Of a stretch of 64,000 nt of DNA, positions 1 through 63,599 are shown piece by piece. A model generated the notes under the pieces. The model saw only the letters and a program-made list of their open reading frames with translations, ran no database searches and had not been told where the DNA came from. The DNA lies in the NCBI GenBank assembly GCA_000165345.1, contig CM000436.1:512001-576000 (forward strand), read 5' to 3'. The position numbers were made by a program, and so were the translations under genes. Position 1 is the stretch's first letter, and the number at the start of each line of letters is the position of its first letter.

Positions 1-767
1 TGAAATTATATGTGCAAGAAATTAAGTATTTTTTTTTTCACCGTAATTGGGATAGTTTTGTATATTCTTCCTTCTTTTTTTCTGTGAGTAGTGTAGTGCT
101 AGTAGTTTATAATACTAGAAAAGAAGTATAAAGTTTACATTTTTAAAAGTATTAAAAATATGGAGGAGAGAGGAAATAGTAAAGCACTTGTTAAAATTGT
201 GAAAGTTGACAAACTTAGCTTAAAATTGAGAATTTCGTTCCACATTAATTGAATATATACATATATTTTATTATTTAAATTAGAAACATTTTTCTTGATT
301 GCTCAATATTCTATTTTCATCTTTTAACATATTGGTTCTAAGTCAATATAAATATTTGTGTTGATTAACTATACAATATGGGAAAATATGTTAATTTTCT
401 ATTCAAAATTATTATGCAATATTGGTTTTGTTTTGAAAGCAATAATAATTAATGATAAATCAATAAAAGTTTCTTCAACTTATTATCTATTTTGAATTAG
501 TATCAATATTCAATTCATTTTATTATTTCACAATCAAAGAATAAAAATAAACATTTATTAATATTAATATAAATAGGAGAAAAAAAAAGAGAAAAGTGGA
601 AAGGCAAAGAGACATTGAATGCATGTAAATTAATTTTTCGTGGGGGAAAACAAAGAAAATAAATGGCGGGCAAAGTGGTCATAGAAAAGTAAAAATTAAA
701 ACAAATAAAATAATAATAAGAAAGACTGGAAACTTTAAGAGTTATGGCATAAGATAGAAAAGTTAAT

Positions 768-7310: not shown

Positions 7311-7685
7311 TTGCTTTCTTTTATTTTGTTTTCTTTTTTTTCTTTGTCAATATTTCTTTTGATTTTTTTTTCAATTATTTTCAGTGGTACCGACAAAAAG
7401 GCGGGAATGTGCATGCAACTCTTCTTAGCTAATATTATTCTTTAAGCGGGCCCACATGTAAAAATGATGTATAAAATTGACGTTTAGTACCGTTATAATT
7501 AAATATTTTTGTTTGGCGCAAAAAAAAAAATCACGCCAAACAATTAAATTCAAGGTAAAGAATTCAATAGGGGAAAAAAGATATGAAAAAAAAAAGAATA
7601 ATGAATCAAATAGGAGTATATTGGATATATTTTTCTTACTTTTGTTAATTTCTAAGGTTCAAAATGGTTTGTCTAATTTCATTCT

Positions 7686-13900: not shown

Positions 13901-16900
13901 TCACCTTTGTTTCTTACTAAACTATTATACATTTCAATTAATTCTTCAGTTATGCTTGAAATTAATGATAAATCATCAGAAAAAGAGCCATTATTTGGGT
14001 GAATATCAAATATCTGAATCTCTCTGGCTATACTTAAATTCATAAAGGTAAAGTAACTTATTTCCATCTTTGAAATATCTAAAGCTCGCTTTAACGAGTC
14101 CAATGTCAATAATCTAACTTGTGGATTAGCAAACACTAGTAATGAAGATACTAAATCCATCTCAACCATATTTATTGGTCTCAATTCTGACAATGAAACC
14201 TTTAAAGGATGTAAATACTGGTCTAAATCAACCAAATCACCAAGTGCTAACACATATAAATACAGCATATTCAATAATTGTGCCATTGAAACTTTTAATC
14301 CATTATGTTTTATTGAGCCAGATAAATATTGTATCAAATGTGTAACCATTTGTATCTGCTTGTCTGAATCGGCTCCCCTCTCCTTACAATTACTATAAAG
14401 TACTCTGGAAATAATATATGTCAATACTGAAACACCACTTGAGTTCTTTAAATAATTCTGCACAGAATTTAACCTCTTGGAATTTACAGAATCCAAAATC
14501 TCTTGTAAACACATATTTCTATTCTCATCATCTTGTTTTGATAAGTATTCAACCATACTCCTTCCTAACTTAATATTCTCTAGTATTAATCTTTCAAATA
14601 AATTCTCCAAAATACTTAATCCATATTGATTTAATGGCTTAAACTCTAACATCTTACTACATATAGAATACAAAATTTCAGATAATTCTAAATCCATTTT
14701 ATGAACATCCTTACTCTCCTCTACTAATTCTGATATCCAACTCATTAATACCCCAACCATCACTTCTACTTCATTCTTTATTCTTGAAATTATCTTATTT
14801 GCACCTTTCCTTATATTATTCTGCTCTATTAATTTCTGTTTCAAAATCTCCACTTTTGTCAAATTATTACCGCCGGTGCTATTATTTACACCCAAACCTG
14901 CATTGCATGTGGACAAATTATTACCGGTATTTGAATTTGCATGACTTCTTGCATTCATGTTATTTGCATGTGAGGTGGTAGTTTTGGGGGCCTTGGCGCC
15001 TTTTGATTTGTTGTCAGCTTGAGACTTCCTGAGTTTAGCAAGTGCAAAGGCGGATGTAGTTGTTACATTTGTGGGAGTAGAAACTTTGGGCTTTGTTACG
15101 CTAGAAGTAGTGCTTGAACTCGAGTTTTTCGTATTTGATTCTGATTCTAAGTCCTTGTTTTTTATTGTCGATTGTTCGTTTAATTCTTTGTTATTATTTA
15201 TAGAGGAAATATTCTCTAAATTTGAGAGTGTACTGTTGAGCCAATGTGATGAGTTTGCTAAGGAGTTATAGAAATCAGAAAATTCATCATATCTTTGCTC
15301 ATTACTTGTGAAAGATTTTAATTTTGTAGATATATTACTTTGTATGTCTTGTATAAACCCTTTATCAGAGTTTTGAGATGCTCCTATATTTATATCAAAC
15401 TCAAAAACTTGATTTGGATCAGATATCATGAAATTACCAAATTCTAACGGCAATTCATTGAGAAATTCTAAAGAATTTATGAAATCTATTTTAAGCTCTT
15501 CTATTAAACTTAAAGTCAATCTTGAGTCTCTAGTTAATGTAATAATATTTAAAAGATTCAAACCTGCACTTCTAAATCCGGATACGTCATTTAATGGAAG
15601 AAATATCAAATCTCTATATAATTCAATGAATTTTTTATTCATTCTTTCCTTTACTTCATCTGATTTATTCCATTTATTAACCAAATCATTAATCAATGTT
15701 ACATGTAATAACTCATTCTTATTATTTAAAAAACTTTTAAATCCAGAATTCATTGTTTTTGGTCCTGAATATATTAGAGGATGGTAACTGCAAAGTAAGA
15801 AAATCAAATAATATGAATATCCTATGTTAGAAGGATCTCCTTTTGAGATCATTTCTAAATTCCCCAAAAAAACCCAAACTTTAAATAAATCCATTCTAGA
15901 TAACATTAACTCATTGTAAATCTCATTCTCCACTATCCCTTCTTCTCTTCTCTTATAGATTAAAGAATTTAATGAGCTTAAAATAGTGGCAAAAGAAAGA
16001 ATCAAATTTTGACAGAAATTCTTATCATTCAATAATAAGCTTTTCCTTTCACAATTTGAGAATGGGAACCGCTTCTCTTGTATCTTAGAACTATCTTCAT
16101 TACACAATCTATTCATAATAGGCTTTTTTAAGCCTGGAAGCATTAAGCTGGCCTGAAAAGCCTCCATATTTACCGCCGAATATTGAGAAATTGAATAACT
16201 TAAATCCTCTTCATCTGATAAAAACGATAAAACTCTACCCATTTGAATTAAAAAGCTAATTAAATAATTTGCTGAATTGATTTTACTCGGATCTGATAAT
16301 TTTAATAAATAAGACTTTAAATCCATAGATTCTTCTTCCTTATTATTCTGGAAATGTATATTAAAATTAACCTTGGAGTTCTCATTGAATACTATTTCTC
16401 TTAGAACTATTAAAATGTTAACTTCAGCATTCCTACAACTATTCGAACAAAAGCAATAACTTCCATCTAATAAAGTTCCTAATTTAGGAAACAACAATGG
16501 TGAAGTTCGAATGCTTGAAACAATATCCAGACTCTTAAATATGTTAGTTTCATCAAAAACATCTTGAATTGATATAATTTGACCTAAAACTGTCATAGAA
16601 AGCTTTTTCAAGTTCATATTCTTATTCAAAGTTGATACAAAAATTCCTGATATATGATTATTAGAGATTAATATTTGTTTTACTTTTGATTTATCAAACA
16701 AGTTAGAATCATTTGTAATTCCAAGCTTTTTAAGTAATATAATAGAATGAGTAAATGATGATATTACCAAGAGCTTGCAGCTCTCATTAATTGATGGATC
16801 ACTAATCAAAGACTGAACTTTCTCAAGGAATTTATCTGAAAAAGGATGATTCTTAGATCCATTTAATAATAGATAAGATAAAGAACAAATATGTACAGCT

Positions 16901-18840: not shown

Positions 18841-18900
18841 AAATGCATGCATACATGCAATATAGTATATTGTATAAAAGGATTGCATGCATTTTTATAA
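18841..18900. promoter_or_regulatory. AP2-type GCATGC cluster (CAAATGCATGCATACATGCAA ... GATTGCATGCATTT) in the GCN1/XPB divergent promoter.
   Basis: Three TGCATGCA-type sites within 60 bp, about 300 bp upstream of the XPB ATG. Confidence 0.5.
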
Positions 18901-22512: not shown

Positions 22513-22725
22513 CTTTGTAAGTATTAAAAATTTCACTAATCAGAAAAGACTAGAATAGAAAAAAGAATAACAATGCGTGGGTAAAAGAGATACTGAAAAA
22601 ATGTTGGTCAAAGAAGTGTGTATATTAAAGTGAGTATAAGCTCTTACTTCTTTTTTTTTCTAATGTGTTTTATTTTCTATTAATAAATTTAATGAATAAT
22701 AATTGATAAATATTAATGTGGGGTA

Positions 22726-22767
22726 TGACGTCATTTAGTATTGCAAATTTGCATGCGCATGCAAACA
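22726..22767. promoter_or_regulatory. Composite module ATGACGTCAT (CRE-like palindrome), then TTGCAAATTTGCA palindrome, then TGCGCATGCAAAC (AP2-type).
   Basis: Read directly. The same ordered combination recurs at 996-1019, 35595-35656, 41008-41063, 55441-55503 and 62880-62911. Confidence 0.5.
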
Positions 22768-27374: not shown

Positions 27375-28612
27375 CTATTCATGGGACTCCAACTCCCATA
27401 TAGAATATTTACCGTCAAAACCATAACAAACCAAAGTTGATGGGTTTGGAACCAAAACCTTCATTATCGGTCTCTTATGCACTGAATTCTGAGTATAATG
27501 TTTTATTGGGTCAAAATTCAATTGCCATACTGGGTCTAAATAATTTGGCAATATGGCGCCATTTAGCGTGGTTGCATGTGTCCACATGCAACCATTTGTT
27601 TGCATGAATAACACCGGTATGCAGTCATGTCCGACGGCGGCCAACAGATTTTCATGCACAAATTTTAAATTAATTAGGGGCAATCCATTCCATTTAAGGG
27701 AAGAGTTTAAGAATTCTAATTTTTTACTAATTTGTGTAAAGTAAAGAAATGAATCCTTATCGGTGAAAGCTATTTGGTTTCCCTTGGGACTGAAATCGCA
27801 AGCCATTATGGCGTTTTGACTATTAATTGATGAAAGGGCTTGAAGAGAAAGAGTTTCTGACGAGTTTTCATCGAAATTTTCATCTTTGAAGTTAGAATCT
27901 TCAATTGAGACTCCAAGAATAATGCCCTTATTTTCAAGCCCACCGCATGCAAGGAACTTGCTGCTATTACTCCAAGCTAAGCATGTAAGAGGGAGCTCAG
28001 AAAGTCCAATTTTAAGTTGGTCAAATACATACAAATCTCTCTGTTTAGCTTCAGAGAAAGAAGTTTTCTCGTTTTCCAAGCCTGAATTTTTTTTAGAAGT
28101 AAAGAAGAATACTTCTCCAGAAGTTGTGGATACTGCAAAACTACAGAACTCTTGAAATGGGGAGATTCTACAAAATGTCGGGTAACAATCTGATTGGATA
28201 CAGTTTAATATAGAAGAAACAATCACCAGCTTTTCAGAAAAACTATCTTTTTCTGCCTCTACTTTGAGAAGCCATACGATAACGAGACGATCTTCTCCAA
28301 CTGAAACTAGCTGGCTATAAGAAGAATCCAACGAGTACTTTGTAGGAAGTAAGGACCAGTCTATTGAAACTATTCTGTTCCTATGCTTTGATAGCTTTGC
28401 CAGAGAGTTGCTTGGATGTAATCCATTAAGCTGATAAATTTTAATATTTCTCTTTTCACATACCAATGAAATATCTAAAAAGAACAAAAAGTCAAGTCAA
28501 ATCAAATCGTCAAGAGCCACTCATTCAGAGTCTAAAACTTACATTTCAAATTCGGATGAAAGCCTATCCCAGTAATGCTGGTTTCCAATTGCTTATCAAT
28601 TAAAAGCTTCAT
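27375..28612 (-). CDS. ARPC1: ARPC1-like WD40 protein (Arp2/3 complex p41 subunit homologue), two exons: join(28612..28543, 28474..27375), about 389 aa.
   Basis: LPLINLKFVHENLLAAVGHDCIPVLF compares with human ARPC1 [41 protein letters not shown] compares with CTTGMDGGMSIWDVKSLE. The ORF-track start at 28487 is TTG. The real N-terminus MKLLIDKQLETSITGIGFHPNLK is in a 70-nt upstream exon (ATG 28612). The 68-nt intron has a GTAAGT donor and a TTTTTAG acceptor. It restores ISLVCEKRNIKIYQLNG, which compares with ARPC1 [29 protein letters not shown]. Confidence 0.75.
28475..28542 (-). other. 68-nt spliceosomal intron (phase 1) of the ARPC1-like gene.
   Basis: The minus-strand donor is AAAT|GTAAGTTTTAG and the acceptor is TTGTTCTTTTTAG|ATATTTCA. 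Splicing joins a conserved N-terminal exon in frame. Confidence 0.7.
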
Positions 28613-28949: not shown

Positions 28950-31850
28950 ATGATTGAAAACAATGAAAGAGAGTTTCAAGAGTTTCTGGATTTTGATAAC
29001 CCAGATATTGAGAAAATCATGGCTATGCTTAAAAGTATGAGAGAGGTTGAGAATGTTCCCACAAAGCACCTTTACTTATACCTATCAGAGCTATTAAAGT
29101 TAAATGGTTTGGGAGAAGAAATTCCGAGAATTGTTATATTAGGGCAACAAAGCATGGGAAAAACTACAGTAATTGATTATTTGATAGGTCATCCATTAGG
29201 ATACTCAACAAACGATATTGGAACATGTTGTCCAATTGTGTTTCATATATCTCCTTCTGAAGAAAAAGATAGAGAGAGTTATTTGTCTTCTAAATTAGTA
29301 TCTGACTGTTTGTTAGGGTCAGGTATTCTTAATGAGGAAGAGATCACAGAATGTTTAATTGGAGGTGAAAAAGTGACCTTCGAGACGCTTCCTGAGAAGA
29401 TCTTGGAGAGGATGAAGGAAATCAAAATGCAAATAAGCTCTCAAGAGTTGAGAATAGATATCAGATCCAAAGGTGCTATAGAAATGATTATTGTAGATTT
29501 ACCAGGTTTAAAAGAAGATACAAAAGAAGGGTCAAAGATAACACAAAAAATAGTTTATGAGTATGTGAAGAACCACCCAAATGACATTTATATTCTTGTC
29601 AAGAGATCAATTGATGATCCTGCTAATTGGTCTTGGAGGCAGAAATCATTTCTTCTTGAAGAATTGGGATTAGGAAAAGAACAAGCAATAGTTGTTGGAA
29701 CCCGAGCTTTGGAATATCTACAGGAAGAAGTTAAAGAAATATCCAATGGAAAGCAACTACTGGAGAGAATTAAAAAGAGAGAACTCAATTCTGGAGATGC
29801 ATCTGGAGCTCCACTACCTTTGTTCATGTTGGAATTATTTAGTTTAAGTAGGGAGGAAAGAGCTATTAAAAAAATGAGTTCTAGAAAGAATGCCATGGAA
29901 AGGAGAATTTCTGCTGGTGAGAAAGCCATAAAAGAGATTATAACCCAACTTTGTGATCAAGATCATGAAACAGAAGTTAAAGAGAGGCTCCTATCTTACT
30001 TCTCAAGAGATTTGTTTGAAATGGAATTAAGATCTAAATTTGGTCGAATACTCTTAAAACAACTTAATTCTCTAGAAAGGTTGTTTAAAAATAAATCCTG
30101 TTCTTCTATTTATACTTGTGAGGAATTACCAAACCACCAACTATGGAGAGAAGATATTATTTTAATTATAAGAAAATTTGCTGAAATTGTCTATGAAATA
30201 GTAACTGGTAACTTTAAAATACTAGATTTCAATGGAAGTCAGTTTTTGGATAACTTTGGTGGAAACTTGTGGATGAACTTAAATGATGCCAAAGAAACCT
30301 TGAATGACGAAAACCTCATATATCGAAATCAAAATAATTCACTTAATAAGCAAAAACAAAAGTATTTAATGGGATCTTTTAATCTGAACTCCTCCTCCGA
30401 AATTATTTATCTTAGGCAGAAAAGAAGTCCATACTTAATCGGAAAGTGTATCTCTTTAAATTTCGTCTCCGATTCTTCTAAAGAAAGTAACTCTGATCTA
30501 ATCAAAGTCGAATTCCAATACAAAAAGAAGGATGGACTATCTACTGGAGATCATATAAAGTATCTTAGTAAAAGTCAATTAGTACCAGTTAAGAAGGTTC
30601 AAGTATCTAAAGTTGAGCAGAATAACTGCTACTGGCTTGTTGGATTCAAAGAAGAAAGATGGAAGAAACTCATCCCGGTTCAAGTTTTGTCTAAAACAGG
30701 AAATAAAATCTTCTTTAAACAAATAGACGATATTAAAACAATAGCAAAGAATATGAATGAAAATGAAGATAGTAATAACAAAGAGAATACTAGATTAGGA
30801 GTGAATTCTGGATTACCCAGAGATACAAACAGGGATGTTTACTATTTAGAACTTTGTGGAGAATATGCTCTGTATATTGATTCAAACTGGGACCAAATTG
30901 ATATTCTCAATCAATCTGTTGATCAAAGCTCAGATATTCTGGAAGAAAAAACTAGTTATCCAACTCAAGTTATAAATAAAAGAATTGAATTTACTCAAGA
31001 TATTAATAAGTCAAATATTAATAATGACCCAATGTATGATCTACTACTACTAAATGAAATGTCATTCAGACTCATTTTTAAATGGTTTAAAGAGACCTTT
31101 AAATCCCTAAAACTAAAAAGTACTTACAATGAACAAATACTATGTCAAATGCTTAGAAGTGTTTCAAATGTAATGAGTACCTCAAATTGGGAGCCAGCTG
31201 TTGTTGATGTACTACAGATGAATGTAAAAGAGTTGGTTATTCCTTTAGTTAATTTAACCTCTTTTGCTTGTTCTGAGGCTTTAAAGAGAATTATGAAAGC
31301 AGCTTTGAATGTACTAAAGAAAGAATCAGAGCAAGTAACAACTTCAAATCTTTTGTTCAAATCAACAGAATTTTCTTCAGTATTTAAAACAACAATTGAT
31401 CACTTTTGTCTAGAGAAAGCAAGAATATGTTCAGAATCCATGAAAGAGTTGATTATAGAACAAGCCAGTGCAATTGTAATGGATTTGAATTATGATGATC
31501 TGTATACAGACTGGGAGAAAGTACACCAAGCTTCCAAAAGTCATTTTGAGAAACTCAAAGAGAGCCTTTCTTCTTCTTTATGTACCAAGCTATATCTTAG
31601 TTTTGTTAATGACTTCAAAGAAATAGGAATTAGGCATAAACAAAAGCTTAATATAGAGAGTTATCTCAAAGAATCCATATTAGATGGTTTATTATCAGAG
31701 GAAGAAGTCATTCAAAGATATAAACTAGACAAAGCTATCAAAGACAATGAAAAATTTAAAGAAAAACACAAAAACCTAAAAGAGAACTACTTGTTTATTC
31801 TAAAGATCATAAAGATGTTGAAATATAATATTCAATTTGAAAGAATGTGA
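28950..31850 (+). CDS. Dynamin-related GTPase, highly divergent (possibly Drp-C-like). It has a dynamin GTPase domain, and the rest is lineage-specific.
   Basis: [24 protein letters not shown] compares with the dynamin P-loop [34 protein letters not shown] compares with [25 protein letters not shown] compares with LILAVSPANSDLANSD. I see no obvious PH or GED region. Confidence 0.72.
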   Translation: [966 protein letters not shown]

Positions 31851-35313: not shown

Positions 35314-35594
35314 TGATGCCTTAAAATGTATTAAAATTGTATAATTTCTTTTGTTTAATTTCTTCCTAAATTTGTAATTGTTTTATCGTTCTTACTGAAA
35401 GCAGCTTCAATAATGCGACTGCATATTTTTTTTCATTCTTTCTTCACTTTTTACATCTCAACTCACTTCGCCTATTCTCTCTCGAATTCTTTAATCACTA
35501 CCCGTATATTTAATTTTTTAAATAGCTGTCATGCATGCATTAATCATTTTTCTTCTTTGTAATTTTATGTGGACTGCATGTACAAAAAAATTTA

Positions 35595-35656
35595 ATACCG
35601 GCGTGCAAATGATTTGGCAAAAAAAAAAGTACACGTCATTGCATGCGTTGCAAATA
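35595..35656. promoter_or_regulatory. Composite module ATACCGG-CGTGCAAATG ... ACACGTCAT-TGCATGCG-TTGCAAATATG.
   Basis: The same element types (TATACCGG-like, TGCAAAT, CACGTCAT/ATGACGTG, GCATGC) occur as at 41008-41063, here in the opposite orientation. The location is the spacer between the NAT10 start and the NAA60-like gene 3-prime end. Confidence 0.45.
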
Positions 35657-40713: not shown

Positions 40714-41007
40714 TTTTATAATAATTTCTTATCTATATCTCAAGCAACGCACTTGTAATTTAAGTCAAGTCTTTTAAAGTTTGAGATTTGTTTTATTTTT
40801 CAATTATGAAACTTTAAATAACTTTAATAACTCAAACCTTTGAAATATCTTGATTATTTTTTTTAATTACTTTAATCAAAAAAATATTTCATAAATTTAA
40901 ATATATTTAATTTTTTTTCAACTATTGTAAAAATGACTATCCACTAATTTTACTCACCCCATATTTGAAGAGATCCAATAATCCCTCTATATTCACACGC
41001 AGTTTTT

Positions 41008-41063
41008 CTATACCGGTGTCTGCAAATTTTGCAAATGCATGCATGCAATTACATGACGTGGCG
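41008..41063. promoter_or_regulatory. Best exemplar of the composite cis-module: CTATACCGG-TGTC-TGCAAATTTTGCAAATGCATGCATGCAA-TTAC-ATGACGTGGCG.
   Basis: Ordered TATACCGG box, then TGCAAAT(T)TTGCA palindrome, then a double AP2-type GCATGCATGCAA, then a CRE-like ATGACGTG. The location is the BTB / Rrp5 divergent intergenic region. A (TA)7 microsatellite follows at 41087-41102. Confidence 0.5.
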
Positions 41064-41250
41064 ACCAGATAGTTTAATATAAAAAAATATATATATATAT
41101 TTATTAAATTTGAGGATAAATATATATATTAAATATTTTTAAAAAATAAAAATTAATTTTAAAGAATAAATGTTCTTCATATAATTGATAAATACACACA
41201 AAACAGAAAAAAAAAAAAATTTTAAGACTAAAATAATTAAAATCCACTAC

Positions 41251-41276
41251 GTGGCGCGCATGGAATGGCGGGCAAG
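41251..41276. promoter_or_regulatory. E2F-like pair GTGGCGCGCATGGAATGGCGGGCAAG upstream of Rrp5.
   Basis: GGCGCGC and GGCGGGC cores lie about 365 bp upstream of ATG 41639. TGGCGGGCAAA also occurs at 664-674. Confidence 0.45.
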
Positions 41277-41638
41277 TCTGTCGAGACTGTCTAGGTAATA
41301 GATTTGAGTCAAAATTGACCAGGGTGAAAAATAAATAATTAATATAACAAATTTAATTTCCTTATTTTTTTTTTTTTTTGGGGAAGAGAATTAATTAAAA
41401 ATCCTTCTTTGATTCTTCTAATTCCATCACTGAGAGTGAGTCGAGTTTAGTGAGAAAAGAATATATTCAAGAAGGAAATTGAATTAAAAGAAATTTAAGA
41501 TATTTTAAATCGTATGAAAAGGAAGCTAGGACAAAAATTTGGTAGCTGGTAGTTATCACTATCAGAAAAATTTAAGAAATATTTGAAGCTGAAAAATTAT
41601 AATTTTTAAGAAAAATAATTGCGTGAGGAAAGGTTGTC

Positions 41639-50081: not shown

Positions 50082-50197
50082 ACCGGTATGCAATTTAAAC
50101 AAAAAAATTTATTACTAATAAATTTATCCACATGAAAATAACCGGTATAGAAATTTTGTACAAAAATAATTACATCCACATGAAAATGCCGGTATAG
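50082..50197. promoter_or_regulatory. Direct-repeat promoter elements in the bidirectional spacer between the paralogue pair: ACCGGTATGCA (50082-50092) and two copies of CCACATGAAAAT(R)(R)CCGGTATAG (50128-50150 and 50176-50197).
   Basis: Read directly. The CCGGTATAG/CTATACCGG box also occurs at 41008, 55441, 35595 and 63514 next to GCATGC motifs. Confidence 0.45.
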
Positions 50198-54897: not shown

Positions 54898-54960
54898 GAG
54901 TGCAAATCCGCCACACGTGGTGCATGCATACACAGATGGATGCATGCGCGCGCCAAAACT
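54898..54960. promoter_or_regulatory. Motif cluster GTGCAAATCCGCCACACGTGGTGCATGCATACACAGATGGATGCATGCGCGCGCCAAAAC upstream of the PM-rich gene.
   Basis: TGCAAAT, a CACGTG E-box/G-box, two TGCATGCA AP2-type sites and an E2F-like GCGCGCCAAAA, about 220 bp upstream of ATG 54675 (minus strand). Confidence 0.5.
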
Positions 54961-55440
54961 CTAACTTAGGCCGGAGTAACCTATATTTGCACACGTAAAG
55001 GAAAAAAGAAGAAGAAAAAAAAATCAAATAACTGCATCCAAATAATGGGTGATATTTGCGAGAAAATTACACAGTAATGGACGTAAAGTTTGAAAGGGGG
55101 GTCGTTAAATTTTTTTTTTTCTTTTAATTCCTTAAGCCAGAATACAAAGACGAATAAAAAAATGAAAAATATTTGAATGAAAAATAAACGAGTTATATAC
55201 GCAATTCTTGAGAGCGTTTTTACTTATAATATAAAAATAAACTATGAATCATTTATAGCTTTTTCTTAATTGAATGAGGTTTACTCATTACGTTTGTAAC
55301 TCAATCTTAAATAGCATAACTCAGAAACAAAAGCAATCCCTTAGTTGTATAAAAGCATCTAAAATAGATATTTGAATACATATGATTTTCTTGAATTAAT
55401 ATCTACCTGTTTTTTTTTTTTTTTTTAATTTTTTTTTATG

Positions 55441-55503
55441 TATACCGGCATTCGCACATGCATGACTAATTTGCATACGTGTCTGCAAATTTGCATGTGG
55501 ATA
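55441..55503. promoter_or_regulatory. Second composite module TATACCGG-CATTCGCACATGCATGAC-TAATTTGCATACGTGTC-TGCAAATTTGCATGTGG. It is not adjacent to any annotated start.
   Basis: The same ordered elements occur as at 41008-41063. It lies about 90 bp downstream of the ATPase stop and about 765 bp upstream of the PM-rich gene ATG. Confidence 0.4.
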
Positions 55504-60067: not shown

Positions 60068-61547
60068 TTTGAAAGTATTAATCAAGTATAACCGTAACAA
60101 TAATAAAATATTAATATAATAAAAGGAAAACAGAGAAAGAGTTTATTAATGTATTTCTTTTTCTTCTATATATTGTTGGGATAATAATTGAATAATAATG
60201 ACCAGTTTTAAAAGGAAATATAATTATAAATTGAAATGAATTTCACTATTTAAAGTAATGCCAAGTTTTGAGAGTTTAATAATTAAGGTAAAATATATAC
60301 CTTAATTATTCCCCTATATAGGCCATGCAAGTTCTGGGAATATTAATACAAAACAATTTTTATGATGAAATTATATATTATTAACCAAAAAATTACAGTT
60401 AAAGCTTTCAAGAACAACTAGGAATAGTAATTCTCTTGGAAGTCCAGTAAATGCTATTCCATCAAATGATGAGGTTTTTTTATATTAAAAAAAGTATAAA
60501 ATAATAAAAATCAATTTTGGGTAAGATTGATTTTTTCCTTTTTTTTTTCTCACTATAATTTGACAGGAAAATTTCAATATTTTTGACTTGTCAAAAATAT
60601 GTACTAGTAAAAAATACTGCAAAAATATTTCTTAATGATGTCAAATTATCATATTATTAATTCAAATTAAGTAATTTAAAGGCCTATTTAATTAGAGACA
60701 ATTCAAAATAAATAATTTGGGGGTGGCGCGCTTTAACAAGCTATTATTAATATTTCTATTAATAAATAATTGTAACAAGAGGAGTTGGTCTAGGCGGGTC
60801 AATTTATAATATTTATAATTTATATTGAAATATAAATGAAGTTAATATAATTAGAAGAAGTAATCAAATAAATAATAATAAAATTAGTATTTTTGATGGA
60901 TAAATAAGATGATAAAAAGAAGAGAAGAAAAAGAATGTATTTAAGGGAATGGAAAAATATTATTAAATAATTGAGGATAATATTTGAGGTCTAAATATAT
61001 ATATTTATCAAGTTGGATTAAATCAAGTATATATTTCTCATATATTATATATACATACTTTACTTTTACTTTTTCTTTTTATTAAAAGCAAATTATGAAA
61101 TAAATTAATTAAAATCAAAATGGGACTATAGTTCAAAACTTTTGGTAATATAGTTAAATTTTGGGTCTTAATTAATAAATAAGGAATTAACAAGAGATTA
61201 TTTATTGATATTATTTTTAATTATCAAATTTAATTATCAAATAACATGTATGCATGCATGCAAAAAGGTATTATATATTATGGACCAAAAATAAATTAAT
61301 GGACAGTTTTGGCGGTAAACTGATGAATTAAAAAGTAAAAATATAAGGTAATTTTAAATATTAAAGGGAGTAAAGAGATTAAAAGATATAATAATAGTAA
61401 AAGTAATTGTATTAATTTTTCTCCTTTTAGAGGGATAGATTACGGATAAGAGGAATACTTGGTGACTATAAATAAAGTTTTGAAAAGTTTTCTTCAAGTT
61501 AATAAATAAAAAGGAAAAGAACATATTTTGGGATTATTTGTACAATA

Positions 61548-62768: not shown

Positions 62769-63318
62769 TCAATTAATTTAGTTTATTACAATGCTAGCTT
62801 TACTTTTTTTTTTCTTATTTGATTTCTGCATGAACTTCCCGCCAATTTTAGAAATTTATTTTTTTCCCTTCTTCAAGTTACATGCAGTAATTGCATGCAA
62901 TATTGACGTTGTTTTGAATTGTTGGATATACCCGTAAGTACATAATAATTATTTAATTAAATTAAACAAAAGTTGTATATTTTAGGGATAGAATTAAAGA
63001 AGGAAAGATATACAAAGGAAAGGAGATAGAAAAAACAAGACGAAGGAAAAAAAGAGAAGGAGATAGGAAAAACAAGACGAGAGAAAAAGAGAAAGAAAAG
63101 AAATAAAAGGCGCGTTATCATGCGTATATTCATTCATTGAAGGAGAAAAGTATGATGTTTTAGACAATATAAAAAAACACTGGATAAAAGTTAAGTAAAA
63201 TAAAGTAAACCATTTATTGAAGTTAATAGCTACCAAATTTATGAACATTTATTTGGGGCTTATTATTAATTATTATATATTTCAAATATATTAATTCCCC
63301 ACTATAGAAATCAACACA

Positions 63319-63332: not shown

Positions 63333-63599
63333 ATCGATACATGGAATAAGTCATTTCAAATAGATCCAGGGACCGAGGGAAAATTGTAGGAGAGGATGTA
63401 TGGTGAAGGAAAGTAGGGGAAAAAAGTAGGTAAATGATAGAATATAAAATTTTAAAATAACAAATTCTATTTTGATTTGGGATGTTGAAGTAAATCGAGA
63501 GTTAAAAAGTATACCGGGTTTCTTTTTTTTCATATCAAATTTTGAAGGTATTATTGATTTTAGTTAGAGTGGGAAGGTAATTATAGAAAGAAAGCTAAA

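Follow-up and report, generated by a model that had tools for sequence, protein, structure and literature searches.

Recurring clusters of five conserved DNA words as probable promoter or enhancer modules on chromosome 8 of Cryptosporidium parvum

On chromosome 8 of Cryptosporidium parvum, five classes of short DNA words recur together in conserved clusters, and these modules are probably combinatorial clusters of transcription-factor binding sites that act as promoter or enhancer modules. They were studied in a stretch of 64,000 nucleotides, the whole of which is referred to here as the window. The original prediction had proposed a composite cis-regulatory module, with the site at 41008–41063 as its index copy, in which four elements are joined in a fixed order. 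The regulatory part of this proposal is supported by the intergenic location of the modules, by footprints that extend over eight species and by the lack of extended repeat homology, while the fixed linkage and order are not; the observation is real but over-specified, and there is no fixed grammar between loci.

The window is AT-rich (G+C ~30%), carries densely packed genes, and spans roughly cgd8_1900–cgd8_2100, the numbering having been fixed partly via product names. Its proteins are identical to the C. parvum Iowa II and IOWA-ATCC entries EAK89392–89408 and CPATCC_004011–004032. Table S2 of Oberstaller et al. 2013 names cgd8_2030 as TBP, cgd8_2040 as a POZ/BTB protein, cgd8_2050 as RRP5, cgd8_2070 as a membrane protein and cgd8_2080 as a hypothetical protein. 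Pfam labels identify NAT10, a GNAT-type acetyltransferase (N-alpha-acetyltransferase 60, or NAA60-like, in UniRef), OGG1 and a P5-ATPase among the called genes, and ENTH, PMI, GCN1, XPB, Cwc15, NAD kinase, a WD40 protein, a dynamin-like protein and a NUP50-like protein among the others. The motif vocabulary of the window comprises the following classes:

Class A: consensus ATACCGGY, scored as ATACCGG or ACCGGT.
Class B: TGCAAAT, scored as ATTTGCA.
Class C: GCATGC(A), scored as GCATGC, often fused to TTT as ATTTGCATGC.
Class D: ACGT-core words (TGACGTCA, TGACGTGK, CACGTGG, TKACGTGGC), scored as TGACGT, CACGTG or ACGTGG.
Class E: (C)ATGTGGA(C), also written GTCCACATG, found by following up CATGTGG.

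The set of four elements first proposed does recur in clustered form, but the fifth element, class E, had been overlooked. What had been called a CRE-like half-site is indeed an ACGT site, better described as a member of an ACGT-core family. Class D sites read TGACGTCA at 22726, TGACGTGK at 1013, 35632 (reverse strand) and 41054, CACGTGG at 54914, and TACGTGK at 41248 and 55476.

Enrichment of these words is pronounced. GCATGCA occurs 31 times in the window against 2.6 expected; 24 of the 31 matches are non-coding by an ORF mask, and five of the other seven lie at 998–1061, in the annotated 5' end of cgd8_1900. ATACCGG occurs 10 times against 0.56 expected, each match being either non-coding or within one of two conserved embedded modules, and wherever it falls within a long ORF it is part of a motif cluster. 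When k-mers in the 12.3 kb of non-coding sequence of the window were ranked without prior selection, against an order-2 Markov background, the GCATGCA family came first (29 GCATGCA observed, 0.7 expected), the E2F family second and ATACCGG/CCGGTATA third (8 vs 0.3, p ~1e-9), with ACGTCAT and CATGTGG further down the same ranking. CATGTGG has seven matches in the window, five of which lie within 52 bp of an A box. The words also keep company with one another: 34 of 47 non-coding motif instances have at least two other classes inside 80 bp, whereas random re-placement (5000 trials) averaged 2.8 such instances and never exceeded 15, a p-value that is optimistic because the motif classes were picked after inspecting the data. 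Clusters of at least three classes lie at 924–1077, 14906–14969, 22726–22764, 35533–35656, 41010–41063, 54901–54992 and 55442–55501, and A–E pairs at 27580–27621 and 50082–50196. Within a module the A box tends to sit at one edge, with 25 partner motifs lying 3' of it and 12 lying 5' of it in A-box orientation; a strict polarity of the A box was rejected, the bias being only 25:12.

The ten sites named in the original prediction all carry the strings quoted for them, at the places where these had been put. GCATGCA is present in nine of the ten and absent from 50082–50197. Nine lie outside long ORFs; the exception, 996–1019, falls within the annotated 5' extension of cgd8_1900, and two A boxes near it, at 955 and 1046, had been missed. 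The elements do not follow one order, since the arrangement is D-B-C at 22726, A-B-D-C-B at 35595, B-D-C-C at 54898 and A-C-B-D-B-E at 55441. Nor does the index site hold the perfect palindrome TGCAAATTTGCA ascribed to it: it reads TGCAAATTTTGCAAAT, and TGCAAATTTGCA itself is found only at 22742 and 55484, a count that alone is not significant (two matches are reached in 9 of 100 shuffles, one mismatch allowed). The CTATACCGG box is missing from 22726, 54898 and 62880. The linkage of GCATGCA to TGACGT, by comparison, does exceed chance, with GCATGCA-N(0-8)-TGACGT at four loci of the window and in none of 100 shuffles; the gaps are 3, 1, 6 and 4 nt rather than the N(0-3) first proposed, and on the 8-mers used in that proposal the spacing is N = 1, -1 and 4, a range of N(-1..4). 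The modules, partial copies and isolated words of the window, other than the index module, are as follows:

924–1077: five-class module, with A at 955 and 1046, D at 1013, E at 1070, plus B and C; within the annotated 5' end of the cgd8_1900 CDS.
7400–7484: small cluster of an E2F-like site, GCATGC, CCACATG and ACGTCA.
14903–14969: module CATGCAAAT-N4-ATACCGG-N10-GTCCACATGCA embedded in the coding sequence of GCN1.
18841–18900: partial copy of two TGCATGCA (C class only), the first of which is GCATGC in C. parvum, the chipmunk genotype and C. canis.
22717–22766: module of TGTGGGG (G-box), ATGACGTCAT (palindromic ACGT site) and TGCAAATTTGCATGCGCATGCAAAC, kept from C. parvum to C. felis.
27570–27632: 63-nt module of ATACCGGTG, TGCAAAC, TTGCATGTGGAC and CATGCAA embedded in the 3' part of the WD40 CDS; an E2F-like TGGCGCC lies just outside, at ~27557–27563.
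35533–35656: five-class module, 450–570 bp upstream of NAT10 (cgd8_2000) and 135–250 bp past the 3' end of the NAA60-like gene.
50082–50197, plus strand: three CCGGTAT boxes, two of them in the tandem unit TCCACATGAAAAT[AA/G]CCGGTATAG, 181–287 bp upstream of cgd8_2070.
54898–54992: module GAGTGCAAATCCGCCACACGTGGTGCATGCAT...ATGCATGCGCGCGCC, kept to C. felis and partly to C. bovis, 223–317 bp upstream of the cgd8_2080 start codon (54675).
55441–55503: module of TATACCGG, CATGCATGAC, ATTTGCAT, ACGTGTC and TGCAAATTTGCATGTGGA, ~90–150 bp past the 3' end of the P5-ATPase gene.
61246–61268: isolated TGCATGCATGCA (C class only).
62880–62911, plus strand: C-D pair GCATGCAATATTGACGTTG, ~125 bp past the 3' end of the NUP50-like gene.
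63510–63517, plus strand: solitary TATACCGG box with no partner motif within 90 bp.

These positions evoke the question of whether the words might work in RNA rather than in DNA, as UTR elements that recruit RNA-binding proteins and affect stability or translation, with UGCAUG resembling an RBFOX site. The modules at 35533, 55441 and 62880 do lie just past stop codons, where 3' UTRs are expected, and that at 27570 lies in the 3' part of a CDS. The words, however, are largely palindromic (GCATGC, TGACGTCA, ACCGGT, TGCAAATTTGCA), those without such symmetry point either way with respect to nearby genes, and the modules at 22717, 41008 and 50082 lie between two divergent 5' ends; in addition, GTCCACATK and TTGCATGYA were detected ahead of mapped transcription starts, on one strand or the other. 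A role in RNA is thus unlikely, even if it is the best placed of the alternatives to a cluster of promoter sites. One feature of the layout counts against the promoter-cluster reading itself: for two modules the next start codon downstream is 512 and 767 bp away, which is far for a genome this compact, and a further promoter-like block intervenes.

The index module is part of a longer conserved block, which was delimited by MAFFT alignment of the BTB/RRP5 intergenic region of eight species and lies 220–355 bp upstream of the BTB/POZ gene cgd8_2040 (minus strand). This block is kept from C. parvum to C. felis between flanks that are unalignable, and it joins the index module to CCAAT-, CACAC- and G-box-like words at its left. 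Its parts, and a neighbouring block, are:

40934–41068: conserved block of ~135 nt.
41008–41017, plus strand: A box CTATACCGGT, in which ATACCGG is identical at 7/7 positions in C. parvum, the chipmunk genotype, C. canis and C. felis.
41021–41036: B boxes, two TGCAAAT in TGCAAATTTTGCAAAT, which differs from the perfect palindrome.
41036–41048: C box TGCATGCATGCAA, with overlapping AP2_1-type GCATGCA sites.
41053–41062, plus strand: D box ATGACGTGGC, with an ACGT core and ACGTGG conserved at 6/6 positions.
41237–41320: separate block nearer RRP5, with ACGTGGCGCGC, GGCGGGC (E2F-like), CGAGACTGTCTAG and GAGTCAAAATTGAC.

As further evidence for the A box, AAATACCGGTG is present in the BTB/RRP5 intergenic region of C. 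bovis. Since the ATGACGTG of the index site reads ATTACGTG in four species, that is, TTACGT in place of TGACGT, the conserved core of the D box is ACGTGGC. The block at 41237–41320 stands outside the index module and is probably the RRP5 promoter; it contains, beside RRP5, the word HGAGACR, a motif of ribosomal-protein promoters, while TGCATGYR has been linked to macrogamont genes (Hasan et al. 2024, PMC11078545).

The density of conservation in the block at 40934–41068 could also be read as a small non-coding RNA gene with an snRNA-type promoter, composed of the octamer-like ATTTGCA, the TATA-like CCGGTATAG and a T-run terminator. In keeping with such a gene, ~75 nt beside the A box match the motifs in degree of conservation, and on the minus strand this stretch finishes with four or more T that are likewise conserved. 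On the other hand, an Rfam scan of the whole window (E <= 1) returned nothing relevant and a tRNA scan was empty, RNAalifold, applied to the conserved nucleotides beside the A box, gave -8.3 kcal/mol with an unfavourable covariation term of +0.43, the stretch parses into the CCAAT-, CACAC- and G-box-like words, and the other modules lack a comparable downstream block, all of which makes a non-coding RNA gene very improbable.

Conservation of the modules was assessed through the comparison of 11 orthologous loci of 22–26 kb each, anchored either on RRP5 (C. hominis, C. meleagridis, chipmunk genotype, C. ubiquitum, C. canis, C. felis and C. bovis) or on XPB (chipmunk genotype, C. canis, C. felis and C. 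bovis), the latter replacing GCN1, an N-terminal fragment of which gave no match as a homologue query. Gene order is common to all compared loci, except that the dynamin-like gene is missing from three species. In orthologous alignments, the modules at 22717, 35533, 50082, 54898 and 55441 form footprints like that of the index module. Identity across four species (C. parvum, chipmunk genotype, C. canis and C. felis; aligned intergenic positions) is 63% for A, 45% for B, 63% for C, 83% for D and 41% for E, with 75% at E2F sites and 16.8% (732/4358) at the remaining intergenic positions; the D sites are thus the most highly conserved of the five classes, and orthologous copies are not independent of one another. 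C. bovis retains A/C/D, A/B/E and B/C/D clusters in three intergenic regions that are orthologous yet unalignable, and one of these clusters, ATACCGGTG…TTTTGCATTT…CATGCATGCAT…TACGTGAA, follows the order seen at the index site. The arrangement is kept within each orthologous locus and differs between loci.

The two modules embedded in exons show that this constraint is not confined to intergenic DNA. The GCN1 module is hosted by a poorly conserved, low-complexity linker rich in S, T and N, whose DNA is nonetheless conserved from C. parvum to C. felis: 32 of 43 module positions are identical in four species, against 121 of 278 in the flanks, and the difference extends to third codon positions (9/14 vs 25/93). 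Third-codon-position identity in the WD40 module (four species) is 52%, compared with 22% elsewhere in that gene (p = 0.003), with no excess at codon positions 1 and 2, and a rare CCG codon is kept in all four species, as are, almost, the GGC and GCC codons, which end in G/C, of the adjacent E2F-like TGGCGCC. The embedded copies are under DNA-level constraint beyond that of coding.

Modules inside genes, and the indirect nature of the tie between modules and transcription, also suit a non-transcriptional role, in which the modules would mark replication origins, chromatin boundaries or recombination sites. One component, however, is an experimentally defined transcription-factor site, two are over-represented in the 100 bp that precede mapped lncRNA starts, and elements of the sort imagined are undescribed for Cryptosporidium in the searched literature, so that this explanation is as hard to sustain as that of a non-coding RNA gene. 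The idea that the copies are remnants of a dispersed repeat or mobile element, or that AT-rich words have come together by chance, is effectively refuted, for despite identical 12-14-mers between sites (for instance GTGTCTGCAAATTT at 41017 and 55480) the longest stretches shared between modules are of 14–16 nt and never more, the spacers are unrelated, the copies are conserved at orthologous positions in up to eight species, and the observed counts were never reached by shuffles.

Class C is the well-known word of the vocabulary. It corresponds to the AP2_1 family of Cryptosporidium and other Apicomplexa (BGCATGCAH / TGCATGCA; PMC3734150), which is over-represented in non-coding DNA and whose GCATGCA is bound in protein-binding microarrays by the ApiAP2 proteins cgd2_3490, cgd1_3520, cgd8_3230 and cgd5_4250 (PMC4117751). 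AP2_1 was published as a single motif, whereas here it is one word of five, fused as ATTTGCATGC or followed by TGACGT 1-6 nt later. Neither the 25 motifs of Oberstaller et al. 2013 (PMC3734150) nor the six upstream families of a 2025 review (AP2_1, AP2_2, G-box, E2F, GAGA and CAAT-box) include ATACCGG or an ACGT-core word.

The claim that no described element accounts for the remaining boxes has to be qualified, as GTCCACATK and, weakly, an ATACCGG-containing motif are the unnamed motifs 5 and 4 of Li et al. 2021, who applied MEME to the 100 bp upstream of 396 C. parvum lncRNA starts (PMC7840661, Table S3). Their motif 5, TTGTCCACATK, is the E box, to which the E boxes GTCCACATG and TCCACATG match, and motif 2, ANTTGCATGYA, is the fused B+C word. 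With motif 4, CCCATACCAGGTGGA, the A box shares only the CATACCGG part and three listed instances with (C/T)ATACCGG; the instances include CCTATACCGGCTGTC and CCCATACCGGCGTTC (PMC7840661), and in the table ATACCGG is clear twice, at -20 and -80, both times on the minus strand. A tandem repeat in one lncRNA, with six copies of CCCATACCAGGTGGA, dominates motif 4, so that it gave no real definition of the A box. Their motifs are unnamed, confined to a supplement and given without co-occurrence or conservation analysis; they come from the 100-bp upstream regions of lncRNAs only, whereas the modules of the window also lie upstream of protein-coding genes, and no ACGT-core motif was reported. A tally of Table S3 counts 18 lncRNAs with motif 5 and 55 with motif 2, and 11 carry both against 2.5 expected (hypergeometric P = 2e-6, or 0.003 if the universe is the 190 motif-bearing lncRNAs), a genome-scale co-occurrence that covers E with B/C only, and only upstream of lncRNAs. 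In 8 of these 11, motif 5 is the nearer to the start (-16 to -52), and only 7 of the 18 motif 5 lncRNAs carry the E2F motif. This tally supports, independently and genome-wide, both the link between E and B/C and a role in promoters. K-mers of candidate antisense transcripts had no match in the portion of the lncRNA FASTA of Li et al. that was searched, nor did locus tags of the window in the portion of the supplement searched. A literature string search for TATACCGG returned primer noise only, one for Cryptosporidium bZIP proteins returned plant papers only, and the motif CAMCAACAR of the F-RBP preprint is unrelated to the module words. In sum, GCATGCA is well known, E is found only in a supplement and A only faintly there, and the ACGT-core word, the composite, the genus-wide conservation and the embedding in exons appear undescribed in the searchable literature.

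ACGT-core elements bound by bZIP proteins include the animal CRE TGACGTCA and the plant C-box, G-box and ABRE (ACGTGGC / ACGTGTC). The D sites share this core, flanked by TGAC, TTAC or CAC to one side and by GTGG, GTGT or GTCA to the other; the D site ATGACGTCAT is a perfect palindrome, and orthologues exchange TGACGT and TTACGT, both of which are classical bZIP half-sites. The likeness is one of sequence form, and an ApiAP2 domain could equally read the D words; no evidence was found for cAMP or ABA-type signalling. An annotated C. parvum bZIP, cgd6_740, shares expression cluster 102 with the module-bearing cgd8_2070.

A second point of reference is the E2F/DP site TTGGCGCC, the dominant promoter motif of C. 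parvum, whose copies resemble the modules in being conserved footprints in the same intergenic regions. Unlike the module words, E2F sites mostly form blocks of their own, at a median of ~240 bp from the nearest module motif (label shuffle p ~0.01). That the modules stand largely apart from E2F blocks suggests a different, probably stage-restricted programme, and implies that each gene of a divergent region may own a block, the index module serving cgd8_2040 and the E2F/GAGAC block serving RRP5. ATAC-seq peaks of sporozoites contain the E2F motif and are reported to lack AP2 motifs (bioRxiv 10.1101/2025.01.17.633476), so that module activity, if any, would be expected at other stages.

Taking these observations together, we infer protein binding to the words, the factors concerned, the direction of transcription and the active stage along the following lines. 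Each site would be a 40-150 bp cluster for sequence-specific DNA-binding proteins, with the GCATGC(A) words presumably bound by ApiAP2 proteins, as in vitro microarrays indicate, the ACGT-core words having the form that bZIP dimers would bind, and ATACCGGY, TGCAAAT and GTCCACATG serving as putative orphan boxes. Factors on adjoining words may act jointly, and GCATGCA followed by TGACGT after 1-6 nt, as at four loci, may be a composite site. The arrangement would be billboard-like, free between loci yet fixed within a locus through the divergence of the intestinal Cryptosporidium clade. Copies at the 3' ends of genes and inside CDS could drive antisense or internal transcripts, and such positions agree with a report that antisense lncRNAs in C. 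parvum tend to start near the 3' end of the sense gene. A more specific scheme can be offered only tentatively, and is appreciably less probable than the general one: the modules could represent an undescribed, genus-wide promoter class in which CCGGTATAG would be a TATA-like, start-proximal element and GTCCACATG a second proximal one, with ApiAP2 and bZIP proteins (e.g., cgd6_740) acting cooperatively on GCATGCA/ACGT, and whose activity would be stage-restricted, silent in sporozoites, and would include antisense or internal transcripts from the synonymously constrained exon copies.

Gene control in Cryptosporidium is poorly understood, and ATACCGGY, the ACGT-core words and GTCCACATG are real, deeply conserved companions of GCATGCA. 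No current view is overturned by these findings, which provide three orphan motifs to be set against candidate factors such as the bZIP cgd6_740, unassigned ApiAP2 domains, and Myb or zinc-finger proteins. The conserved cassettes are compact (50-130 bp) and could be employed in stage-specific reporters, and regulatory DNA inside coding sequence bears on the design of recoding and knock-in experiments.

With regard to the BTB/POZ gene downstream of the index block, a hidden first mini-exon (ATGGG|GTGAGT) was considered and rejected: the protein begins with MDEKRIKLNVGG or a close variant in all species, and in several of them GTGAAC or GTGAAT stands where the 5' splice site would be.

The intergenic region shared by the BTB/POZ gene cgd8_2040 and RRP5 (cgd8_2050) contains, besides the block that carries the index module, a second conserved block on the side of RRP5, and two further motif clusters are embedded within coding sequence:

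41237-41320, second conserved block, upstream of RRP5, with AAATCCACTACGTGGCGCGC, GGCGGGC, CGAGACTGTCTAG and GAGTCAAAATTGAC
14903-14969, embedded motif cluster, GCN1 linker
27570-27632, embedded motif cluster, 3' part of the WD40 gene

The RRP5-side block is kept in all eight species compared, and brings together E2F-like sites and the word HGAGACR, which has been reported for ribosomal-protein promoters (PMC11078545). Within the index block, three elements that lie outside the original finding are found at 40955-40990: a CCAAT box, GATCCAATAATCCC, kept out to C. felis; TTCACACGCAG, kept out to C. canis; and CCCCATA, kept out to C. ubiquitum and altered by one base in C. canis.

Both coding-embedded clusters display conservation of synonymous sites in excess and are candidate internal or antisense promoters. 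A third cluster, the five-class module at 924-1077, is counted as coding because the public annotation begins cgd8_1900 at the ATG at 768. An in-frame methionine at 1029 precedes the transmembrane segment by approximately 25 residues, and therefore the annotated start may be placed too far upstream (region 768-1100).

The WD40 ORF (27375-28487) starts with TTG, and the span of the annotated orthologues exceeds their coding length by 50-170 nt, from which it follows that this gene contains an intron as well as an upstream exon not represented in the ORF list. At window positions 28950-31850 in C. parvum, and likewise in the chipmunk genotype, a dynamin-like gene separates the WD40 gene from NAT10. 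C. hominis and C. meleagridis carry such a gene directly upstream of NAT10, and none is called between NAT10 and the WD40 gene in C. canis, C. felis or C. bovis, in which the two genes are only 0.5-1.1 kb apart.

Upstream of cgd8_2070, the unit TCCACATGAAAAT[AA/G]CCGGTATAG is duplicated in tandem at 50120-50197, with a period of 47 nt; one copy is present in C. meleagridis and two in every other species out to C. canis. Approximately 130 nt (55290-55440) lying between the pair of modules upstream of cgd8_2080 are conserved from C. parvum to C. ubiquitum, this conservation not extending to C. canis, and the minus strand of the stretch carries GT...AG pairs, which might delimit a short intron.
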